64,000 nucleotides of DNA, taken from assembly GCF_003018115.1 (NCBI RefSeq), contig NZ_CP027457.1, one strand, 5' to 3'. Origin of the DNA: Escherichia coli (GTDB lineage Bacteria > Pseudomonadota > Gammaproteobacteria > Enterobacterales > Enterobacteriaceae). Position numbers and translations under genes: made by a program. Below are positions 43,492 through 43,976 of this stretch, in pieces. The notes under the pieces are model-generated. The model did no database searches and was not told the DNA's origin. It saw only the letters and a list, made by a program, of their open reading frames with translations. How positions within the stretch are numbered: the first letter of the stretch is position 1; each line of letters opens with the position of its first letter.

Positions 43492-43683
43492 GCAGAATAT
43501 TTTGCTGAAAAATGACGTTGGCCAACGCGGACGGATAACACGAAATCCTGCGAACTGGCAAAACCTAAGTGAATAAAAGTAAAAACCCCGTTTGTTGGCA
43601 GCAAGCGGGGTTTTGTGTTTCTGACCTTGGATAAGGCAAGGGAGAACACGGAAAAGTATAAACGAATTCTGTTGAGGTTGACT

Positions 43684-43830
43684 ATGAAAAACGGCCTTGA
43701 ACTGAAAGCGCCAGTAAGTGATGACATCAGCAGAGCGCTGGCTTTTGCTATTAAGTGGGTGGCGGTTGGTATCGCTGTGTCTCCGATACTGTATGGGCTG
43801 GCAAAACTGGTCATTGCGTTGAAATCGTGA
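43684..43830 (+). CDS. hypothetical small membrane protein inside the lysis cassette
   Basis: 48 aa from ATG with GAGG upstream; hydrophobic C-terminus [22 protein letters not shown]. Confidence 0.3.
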
Positions 43831-43844
43831 AGGGAGGATTAAAC

Positions 43845-43976
43845 ATGTCAGACAAACTCATAATGCTGGCGAAGATCCTCTGTGTAATCGTCGGCATTTC
43901 ATTTTCACTAATGCTGGTTGCTCTTTTTCTTTCCATGGGCTGGATGATGTTATCTTCGTCGGGGCTGCTGGGGTGA
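43845..43976 (+). CDS. hypothetical small hydrophobic peptide inside the lysis cassette
   Basis: 43 aa; strong Shine-Dalgarno AAGGGAGGA; single [25 protein letters not shown]; stop overlaps the Rz GTG. Confidence 0.4.

Follow-up and report, generated by a model that had tools for sequence, protein, structure and literature searches.

Lambdoid lysis cassettes, made up of a holin, an endolysin and a spanin, are textbook systems. Lambda S105/S107 and phage 21 S68/S71 are the products of dual-start holin/antiholin genes with an extension of 2-3 residues, and short antisense RNAs inside phage operons have been shown experimentally in P22 (sar RNA and ant) and lambda (OOP and cII). Accessory membrane proteins are also on record. 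The releasin gp25 of phage Mu (DUF2730) is a small membrane protein that is not a holin and whose gene lies a few genes away from that of an endolysin of the signal-anchor-release (SAR) type; it modulates lysis, and its 99 amino acids comprise an N-terminal transmembrane (TM) domain (N-out, C-in) and a 73-residue anionic cytoplasmic domain (PMC9239132). Similarly, HokW from the hokW-sokW locus of the Stx2 prophage Sp5 aids phage release (PMC8621323). Both proteins are thus precedents for accessory membrane proteins in lysis. The present analysis deals with two short open reading frames (ORFs), ORF1 and ORF2, that lie between the endolysin gene (R) and Rz in the lysis cassette of an Escherichia coli lambdoid prophage. 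The sequence analysed, called the window hereafter, is a stretch of 64,000 nucleotides from contig NZ_CP027457.1 (assembly GCF_003018115.1). The reading that we favor, plausible although somewhat short of probable, is that the two ORFs are genuine, independent small-gene modules of the late (lysis) operon that modulate the timing or the efficiency of lysis in an accessory capacity.

The cassette of the window shares with the phage-21 type an S21-family class II holin and an Rz gene with Rz1 embedded in its +1 frame (Table 1), but it lacks the contiguity of R and Rz. The stop codon of the lysozyme gene (43491) and the GTG of Rz (43973) are separated by 481 bp, which agrees with the gap of about 480 bp that the original prediction had set against the usual contiguous S-R-Rz order. 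In the K-12 prophage DLP12, rrrD and rzpD overlap, and in Qin R and Rz are contiguous. The genes are tightly packed, with Shine-Dalgarno (SD) sequences and overlapping stop and start codons. Several E. coli chromosomes have the 511 bp around the R-Rz gap at 100% identity. Of 5426 complete E. coli genomes, 2100 match this region, and 989 of these cover at least 80% of its length. The homologues were compared in a set of 75 loci that correspond to 57 unique sequences.

The two ORFs had been predicted to encode 48 and 43 residues with a single TM segment each, and both turned out to be real and conserved, with one predicted TM helix per protein. Each has a single strongly hydrophobic 19-residue window, with a mean Kyte-Doolittle value of 1.9 in ORF1 and 2.9 in ORF2. 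On identical E. coli chromosomes, the NCBI annotation pipeline PGAP calls them as hypothetical proteins (WP_000788411 for ORF1 and WP_001280927 for ORF2). At full length, ORF1 matches the hidden Markov models (HMMs) of phrog_1115 and phrog_4493 (E = 3.4e-32 and 1.3e-23), a family that also includes phrog_3246, and ORF2 matches phrog_4906 (E = 3.1e-21). Neither of them has a family in Pfam, NCBIfam or PADLOC.

The pattern of variation makes clear that ORF1 is a protein-coding gene under purifying selection. It is intact in all 75 loci, where the ratio of non-synonymous to synonymous change (pN/pS) is 0.19 in frame and 1.7-2.6 out of frame, and its variable sites are distributed 3/3/12 over the first, second and third codon positions. 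Between E. coli and Salmonella, pS reaches 0.60-0.64 and pN 0.13-0.14 (pN/pS = 0.21), and ORF1 retains 77-79% identity compared with 50-60% for the adjacent Rz. The exact 48-residue sequence is recorded on about 980 contigs. The architecture, in which MKNGLE, two variable residues and an AP hinge precede a C-terminal TM helix, is also retained by relatives of only ~25-45% identity. For the 60-residue form described below, AlphaFold2 predicted helices at residues 3-15 and 24-59 with modest confidence (pLDDT of 69). Two ORFs of the opposite strand were considered as alternatives and rejected: the one at 43434-43814, which spans the hairpin upstream of ORF1, is broken in 21 of the 75 homologues, and the one at 43811-44053 in 28.

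A hairpin resembling an intrinsic terminator is found upstream of every ORF1-family gene among those whose upstream DNA was inspected. Its outer stem is invariant and its inner stem covaries among E. coli, Salmonella and metagenomic relatives; its structure suggests that it could act as a terminator in both directions. The leader block that follows is conserved among E. coli, Salmonella and L095, a divergent JGI contig. The SD of this leader precedes, in most E. coli copies, an in-frame ATG that opens a 60-residue ORF1. That codon is ATG in 72 of the 75 loci and ACG in the other three, including the window, so the window allele probably makes the 48-residue form only. In Salmonella, the phages GER2 and phiSTEC1575, and L095, the leader SD opens a short leader ORF instead; in Salmonella and GER2 it ends in a GTGA that combines its stop with the GTG start of ORF1, and in L095 and phiSTEC1575 it continues beyond this GTG. 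The original prediction had begun the region at 43615, but this position is only the GTG of a mechanical 71-residue frame, at the 3' edge of the hairpin and devoid of an SD; the ORFs themselves are real.

The codons between the two ORF1 starts encode a cationic extension, and divergent members of the family keep its amino acid pattern (x-Y-K/R-R/K-hydrophobic-hydrophobic-x-R-L); in L095 this segment differs by four synonymous and two non-synonymous changes. The extension is therefore likely to be translated wherever its start is present. The internal methionine of MKNGLE is nearly invariant across the family, and in 13 of 13 lineages it is preceded at 5-9 nt by GAGG or GAGA, within codons for L-R-L, M-R-L or V-E-V and with the arginine encoded by AGG or AGA. 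The 48 nt around this methionine show no synonymous change at all between E. coli and Salmonella, compared with a pS of 0.6 elsewhere (P ~1e-4). The simplest reading of these signals is that ORF1 appears to be a dual-start gene with forms of ~60 and 48 residues. At the level of the family, two in-frame starts whose products differ in N-terminal charge are indeed present.

The case of ORF2 is different. Its SD and ATG are conserved, its 43 codons are kept in 23 unique variants and none of their ~78 variable sites carries a nonsense substitution. Residues K4, G17, S19, F20 and S21 are invariant and the TM motif VGISFS is kept across variants that are 55-95% identical. This pattern suggests that ORF2 is probably translated, with a loosely constrained amino acid sequence. 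The original prediction had pointed to its strong SD and to the overlap of its stop with the Rz GTG, and both are borne out (GTGA, 43973-43976). The codon at the canonical Rz ATG of MNRVL... alleles (43979-43981) is ATA in the window, as in 49 of the 75 loci, and ATG in the other 26; therefore, the in-register start in the window is the GTG that overlaps the ORF2 stop. Translation from this GTG would read MSINR... and retain the usual N-terminal arginine, and the basic residue normally present at the N-terminus is lost with the start preferred by PGAP. The distance from the ORF2 stop to the Rz ATG is 7-8 nt in other alleles, and over all the arrangements seen a stop lies 0-8 nt from the Rz start; even a common frameshifted ORF2 variant has its new frame terminate on the ATG of Rz, as ATGA. 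The GTGA overlap, together with the ATA at the canonical start, suggests translational coupling, in which ribosomes translating ORF2 would feed Rz. As for insertions at this junction, two loci (L015 and L016, positions 3369-4335) have a ~940-bp insertion that separates ORF2 from Rz.

The two ORFs had been described as inserted between the endolysin gene and Rz. The picture of one insertion does not hold: judging from their differing distributions, they are two independent modules. The ORF1 family is narrow, since a profile search of 1.84 billion representative proteins retrieved 28 clusters only. It occurs in the absence of ORF2 in Salmonella, GER2 and metagenomic phages. The Salmonella prophages carry ORF1 10 nt upstream of Rz, together with a holin_2_3 holin and a lysozyme, with a lambda-S-type holin and a GH19 endolysin, or with a holin_2_1 holin, a lysozyme and an antirepressor. 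Besides GER2, it is found in phiSTEC1575-Stx2k beside an M15 peptidase. Altogether, ORF1 lies directly 5' of Rz beside four endolysin types (SAR lysozyme, other lysozymes, GH19 endolysin and M15 peptidase). Among IMG/VR contigs, L113 has a family member between a lysozyme gene and a methyltransferase gene followed by Rz, and L116 has one between an endolysin-like gene and lipoprotein genes. The metagenomic phage contig L108 (2501-3685) has, 3' of a capsid gene, two tandem hairpin-preceded members followed by a phrog_920 holin, two small TM ORFs and a SAR-type lysozyme. Most contexts thus place the family close to Rz or other lysis genes.

ORF2 was found by tblastn in 276 phage records, mostly Stx1 and Stx2 (Shiga toxin) phages and usually without ORF1. 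It lies immediately 5' of Rz, and the order in Stx phages is R-ant-ORF2-Rz; examples are ORF50 of BP-4795, ORF53 of P13374 and ECs_1966 of Sakai Sp10, and many records leave ORF2 unannotated. The arrangements seen at the R-Rz junction are R-Rz, R-ORF1-Rz, R-ORF1-ORF2-Rz, R-ant-ORF2-Rz and R-ORF1-methylase-Rz. In four E. coli loci (L012, L013, L023 and L025; ~3215-3325 in L012), ORF2 is replaced by a 28-residue ORF, MSAELIRAMAFAIRIVAIAVLVWAIRWW, which corresponds to the C-terminal part of a second, GER2-type variant of the ORF1 family and whose stop overlaps the Rz ATG. It looks like a recombination scar that left two ORF1-family members in tandem. A few side observations concern these loci. 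L082 has a 120-bp local duplication within the ORF1 region (2430-2549). In L113, the gene beyond the family member is a 327-residue ORF (3083-4066) with a DPPY motif, probably a DNA methyltransferase, whose start overlaps the end of the ORF1-family gene. In L108, the second small TM ORF ends with AVRWW just before the lysozyme ATG, and a C-terminal IRWW or VRWW recurs in many small TM ORFs of the ORF1 family.

The transcriptional setting of the ORFs bears on their expression. A scan for consensus promoters found none on the sense strand in 42600-44800, including the intervals between the hairpin and either ORF, and no terminator lies between the ORFs and Rz; the strong terminator-like hairpin is upstream of them. 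Expression is therefore most likely late, in the lysis phase. On the opposite strand, the same interval contains a single promoter-like site, located within the N-terminal codons of ORF1 and pointing at the hairpin. With 9 of 12 matches and 2.1 such sites expected by chance, this site is not significant alone. A site is found at the same position in L095 (TTGTCA-18-TATAAT), GER2 (TGGACA-18-TATACT) and L109 (TTTACC-16-TATACT); no such site turned up in L108 or at the first family member of L107. The geometry of promoter and terminator leads to a hypothetical RNA whose 5' end is anti-SD and which also has a single-stranded stretch rich in A and C and a U-tailed terminator. Its consensus fold has two hairpins and almost no covariation, and no Rfam family matches it above E = 0.27. 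That an antisense RNA covers the long-form start of ORF1 is, on these signals, rather doubtful.

Several described small RNAs (sRNAs) were considered for the R-Rz gap and discarded. AgvB and AsxR lie 3' of PR' (Tree et al. 2014, PMC4104026), and Rfam places AgvB upstream of an esterase-like gene in Sakai Sp10, which rules both out for the gap. The abundant Hfq-bound peaks EcOnc10, EcOnc11 and EcOnc12 (PMC4104026) do not correspond to the predicted antisense RNA either, for they map downstream of Rz, to the terminator of a ylcI/ynfO-like gene on the opposite strand of Sakai Sp10 (L106, ~6460-6508), once a ~140-nt coordinate shift between genome versions is allowed for. The window counterpart of this gene occupies the opposite strand at 45497-45697. 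The Pas sRNAs PasA and PasC were rejected on their published position between esterase and holin, in the order esterase-PasA-holin-lysozyme (bioRxiv 10.64898/2026.05.13.724894). An Rfam scan of 42600-45200 at E<=1 for known sRNAs returned only a chance-level rimP-leader match on the hairpin.

If these elements are put together, module 1 would consist of the terminator hairpin, a strong SD and ORF1, a tail-anchored inner-membrane protein whose long form of ~60 residues would carry a cationic amphipathic N-terminal helix and whose short form would be the 48 residues from MKNGLE. Module 2 would be ORF2, and the ribosomes that finish it would re-initiate on Rz. Both ORFs would be made only as the Q-modified polymerase reads through the hairpin, alongside S, R and Rz/Rz1, and their products would be inserted in the inner membrane with their N-termini in, following the positive-inside rule. 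Sequence considerations thus make late inner-membrane proteins the most likely identity of both products. The mode of action of ORF1 would parallel that of dual-start holin/antiholin pairs, and ORF2 would act mainly as an Rz-coupled TM peptide. The original prediction had offered three functions: lysis-timing modulators resembling antiholins, a membrane toxin or an exclusion peptide. The first seems to fit best, given the position of the ORFs, the lack of a sense promoter, the coupling to Rz and the dual-start motif of ORF1. A membrane toxin would be compatible with the data, given the possible antisense RNA. An exclusion peptide made by the prophage has the weakest support, as no sense promoter was found and the terminator is upstream.

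Several observations weigh against the favored reading. Not all ORF1-family members belong to lysis cassettes: those of L109-111 and L117 come after tail-fibre assembly genes at prophage ends and that of L114 is by capsid or tail genes, so the link to lysis may be positional and reflect a favored insertion junction. ORF1 matches no holin family in Pfam or PHROGs, and its C-terminus, ALKS or IRWW, is not the charged hydrophilic tail typical of holins. The K-12 cassettes of DLP12 and Qin have no homologue of ORF1 or ORF2; therefore, neither is required for lysis. ORF2 is intact in 65 of the 75 loci and frameshifted in 10, its pN/pS of 0.5-0.7 barely differs from that of the other frames, and its variable sites show no bias toward third positions (13/10/13 over the three codon positions, 26/25/27 in a wider set). 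Finally, an independent Rz start at ATG 43988, as called by PGAP, is possible.

Several scenarios may be opposed to the favored one. The ORF2 figures just given would suit a translated spacer that is kept open only to deliver ribosomes to Rz, or a slowly decaying relic, and so would the stop that stays close to the Rz start in all arrangements, frameshifted variant included, and the frequent ATA that leaves the overlapping GTG in register. Nevertheless, this scenario does not account well for the N-terminal half of ORF2 and its TM motif (C-V-x-V-G-I-S-F-S-L), both (near-)invariant across the divergent variants, nor for its strong, conserved SD and ATG, nor for the lack of nonsense substitutions. 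Many Rz alleles, moreover, have a good SD and ATG of their own. The TM segment of Rz, which is certainly coding, is similarly weak, with an in-frame ratio of 0.49 and higher out-of-frame ratios, and a weak constraint thus seems usual for a TM peptide. We consider the spacer or relic scenario rather unlikely, though a serious candidate for ORF2. A more specific version, in which ORF2 derives from the N-terminal TM segment of Rz, was rejected: the alignment to lambda Rz (z = 4.8, in inconsistent registers) is explained by similarity in TM composition, and the score against the Rz of the window is only z = 0.2. It could also be argued that both frames are open merely by chance, within a spacer that codes for nothing, given their very short length, the even distribution of variable sites in ORF2 and its frequent absence from annotations. 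Yet ORF1 is under purifying selection and intact in every locus, its distant relatives keep its architecture, and both ORFs have strong conserved SDs and belong to PHROG families. This is hardly credible as a general explanation and effectively refuted for ORF1; the original prediction would have fallen if the homologues had been non-coding and the ORFs unconserved, and what is found is that both ORFs are conserved and that ORF1 is under selection.

As for ORF1, the main rival of the favored reading is that it could be the toxin of a mobile cassette resembling type I toxin-antitoxin (TA) systems, made up of a hairpin, a hydrophobic ORF and a cis-antisense RNA, which inserts at late-operon junctions without functional ties to lysis and is selfish, stabilising or defensive. 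In that case, the antisense RNA issued from within the 5' codons of ORF1 would silence leaky expression in the lysogen. This would be congruent with the hairpin that precedes every inspected member in any context, with the tandem copies and repeated flanking hairpins of L107, L108 and L109, and with the members found outside lysis cassettes. Several lineages have the opposite-strand site at an equivalent position, with a better match to the consensus in L095, the deduced RNA has the anti-SD 5' end, the single-stranded stretch and the terminator described above, synonymous variation is suppressed across the promoter region, and the leader ORF that ends as GTGA at the ORF1 start in Salmonella and GER2 resembles mok/hok coupling. 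However, no sense promoter for the toxin was found in the scanned interval, the opposite-strand site is no better than chance by itself and missing from L108 and the first L107 member, and the RNA is nearly devoid of covariation. The conservation of synonymous sites is equally well explained by the internal translation-initiation signals. There is no match to a toxin or antitoxin family in Rfam, Pfam, NCBIfam or PADLOC, and lysis cassettes account for most contexts. Besides, ant-type phages, whose spacer is common with the window only up to ~43573, also carry a terminator after R, a different one that in Sakai Sp10 takes the place of the hairpin; a terminator there need not belong to ORF1. A TA-like cassette is therefore unlikely in our estimation, but by no means negligible. 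A last scenario regards the ORFs as classic morons, that is, lysogenic-conversion or superinfection-exclusion peptides of the resting prophage. Small inner-membrane exclusion proteins such as gp15 of HK97 are known in lambdoid phages, the presence of ORF1 and ORF2 does vary among otherwise similar phages at a junction of conserved modules, as is the case for morons, and the family members after tail-fibre genes are at typical moron sites. Against it, the stretch from the hairpin to either ORF yielded no sense promoter, the terminator is upstream and not downstream, the late operon couples both ORFs tightly to Rz and PADLOC has no match. We regard this scenario as improbable.

Returning to the accessory role in lysis, a bolder version of it can be proposed. 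ORF1 would represent an unrecognised family of dual-start, hairpin-linked small membrane proteins guarded by an antisense RNA, which add a layer of lysis control in lambdoid and Stx-type phages, perhaps as a membrane-active trigger or brake with long and short isoforms of opposing effects, and ORF2 would be a TM partner that tunes the synthesis or function of the spanin, so that the timing of host lysis would be affected. This is quite unlikely as a whole. If true, the moment at which phage and Shiga toxin are released would also be influenced by this layer of control. Stx phages depend on lysis to release the toxin; thus, a change in lysis timing or spanin expression, even a modest one, would bear on virulence and phage yield. 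Two extra conserved membrane-protein genes are present in the lysis cassette of a large share of E. coli prophages, and the main interest of the locus resides in their prevalence in Stx phages and in their specific, testable features. What had been predicted did not include the hairpin, the loss of the ORF1 long-form start, the ATA in the position of the canonical Rz start codon or the weak amino acid constraint on ORF2. From the annotation standpoint, the likely start of Rz and the long and short forms of ORF1 call for correction.

Table 1 Features of the lysis cassette and of the R-Rz gap in the window
Feature	Position	Strand	Remarks
Class II (S21-type) holin	42738-42953	+	PF04971 Phage_holin_2_1, E = 9e-33; PGAP 'class II holin family protein'
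Lysozyme (R) with SAR-like N-terminus YGLSAAVLALIAAGAPAP	42958-43491	+	PF00959, E = 1.8e-23
Spacer 3' of lysozyme gene	43492-43581		Mostly conserved; hypervariable patch at 43514-43533
Intrinsic-terminator-like hairpin	43582-43614		15-pair stem; A-tract 5', T-tract 3'
Hypothetical antisense RNA, ~74 nt	43575-43648	-	Deduced from promoter/terminator geometry; would span the long-form ORF1 SD and start codon, with its end at the hairpin
Conserved leader	43615-43647	+	Small CCTTG/CAAGG hairpin; strong SD AAGGGAG for the ORF1 long form
Lost start of long-form (60-residue) ORF1	43648-43650	+	ACG in the window
Codons of cationic N-terminal extension EKYKRILLRLT	43651-43683	+	Probably untranslated in the window; holds the internal SD GAGG (43674-43677)
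Putative sigma-70 promoter TAGTCA-18-TATACT	43655-43684	-	Within the ORF1 N-terminal codons, pointing at the hairpin
ORF1, short form (48 residues)	ATG 43684 - TGA 43830	+	SD GAGG 43674-43677, 6-nt spacer; phrog_1115/4493
ORF2, single-TM peptide (43 residues)	ATG 43845 - TGA 43976	+	SD GGGAGG 43832-43837, 7-nt spacer; phrog_4906
Rz i-spanin	43973-44446	+	PF03245, E = 4e-39; start GTG 43973 or ATG 43988 (PGAP choice)
Rz1 o-spanin lipoprotein, embedded in Rz	44214-44405	+	From ORF list and translation; lipobox LVVSAC

Some other features of the window may be mentioned. The N-terminus of the lysozyme, as read from its translation, is weakly hydrophobic and rich in Gly, Ala and Ser, which suggests SAR behaviour. 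The ~20-nt hypervariable patch just past its stop codon stands out in the variability map of the 57 unique homologues, as the spacer around it is almost invariant. In related loci, the ORF homologous to Rz1 matches PF06085 (Rz1). The stretch between esterase and holin (42060-42738) contains annotated DUF1378 (42195-42374) and DUF826 (42415-42660) ORFs. Directly 3' of Rz, a 74-residue ORF (44470-44694; hypothetical protein WP_000735655) matches only positions 100-172 of the 291 positions of phrog_2571 and may be a fragment of a longer gene. Farther upstream, five copies of the STnc100 sRNA (Rfam RF02076, 119-172 bits) are found at 36917-37129 and 38889-39868, four of them in tandem just upstream of a SASA esterase gene. 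IsrK (51 bits) and the C4 antisense RNA (69 bits) adjoin each other at 28495-28679, tRNA genes are located at 35942-36014 and 36027-36100, and a sok antitoxin RNA (117 bits, 29388-29562) marks a genuine hok/sok type I TA locus in the same prophage.

The comparison with known systems helps to place both ORFs. A literature search by accession, locus tag, phage name and concept found no publication on ORF1 or ORF2. Like the products of dual-start holin/antiholin genes, ORF1 is a small membrane protein encoded in a lysis cassette, with two in-frame starts and extra positive charge at the N-terminus of its long form. In contrast to them, it has no homology to holin families, has a single C-terminal TM helix and an extension of ~12 residues and lacks a charged C-terminal tail, and the window cassette already contains a bona fide S21-type holin. 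The differences with Mu gp25 are also considerable: the N-terminus of ORF1 is cationic and its TM helix is C-terminal, ORF2 is barely more than a TM helix, neither matches DUF2730 in Pfam, and ORF1 accompanies non-SAR endolysins (GH19 and M15) as well. With hok/sok, ORF1 shares the nature of a small hydrophobic prophage ORF, a possible cis-antisense RNA over the ribosome-binding site, a mok-like leader ORF in some lineages and tandem copies; it differs in that it lacks any homology to Hok or sok and any detected sense promoter, and in that its antisense RNA is only predicted. This RNA would resemble P22 sar and lambda OOP in being short, directed against an operon, overlapping a ribosome-binding site or gene end and ending at an intrinsic terminator, but here it is predicted from a promoter-like site that is not significant by itself, and there is no sequence similarity to either. 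The closest relatives of ORF1 (phrog_1115, phrog_4493 and phrog_3246) and ORF2 (phrog_4906) are their own PHROG families, of which they are direct members according to HMMs, tblastn and annotation; these families carry no function, the window allele of ORF1 lacks the long-form start, and the tandem of ORF1 and ORF2 is one of several arrangements. In short, neither ORF belongs to a characterised family, and the kind to which both would belong, small membrane proteins with an accessory role in the late or lysis operons of phages, is already known.

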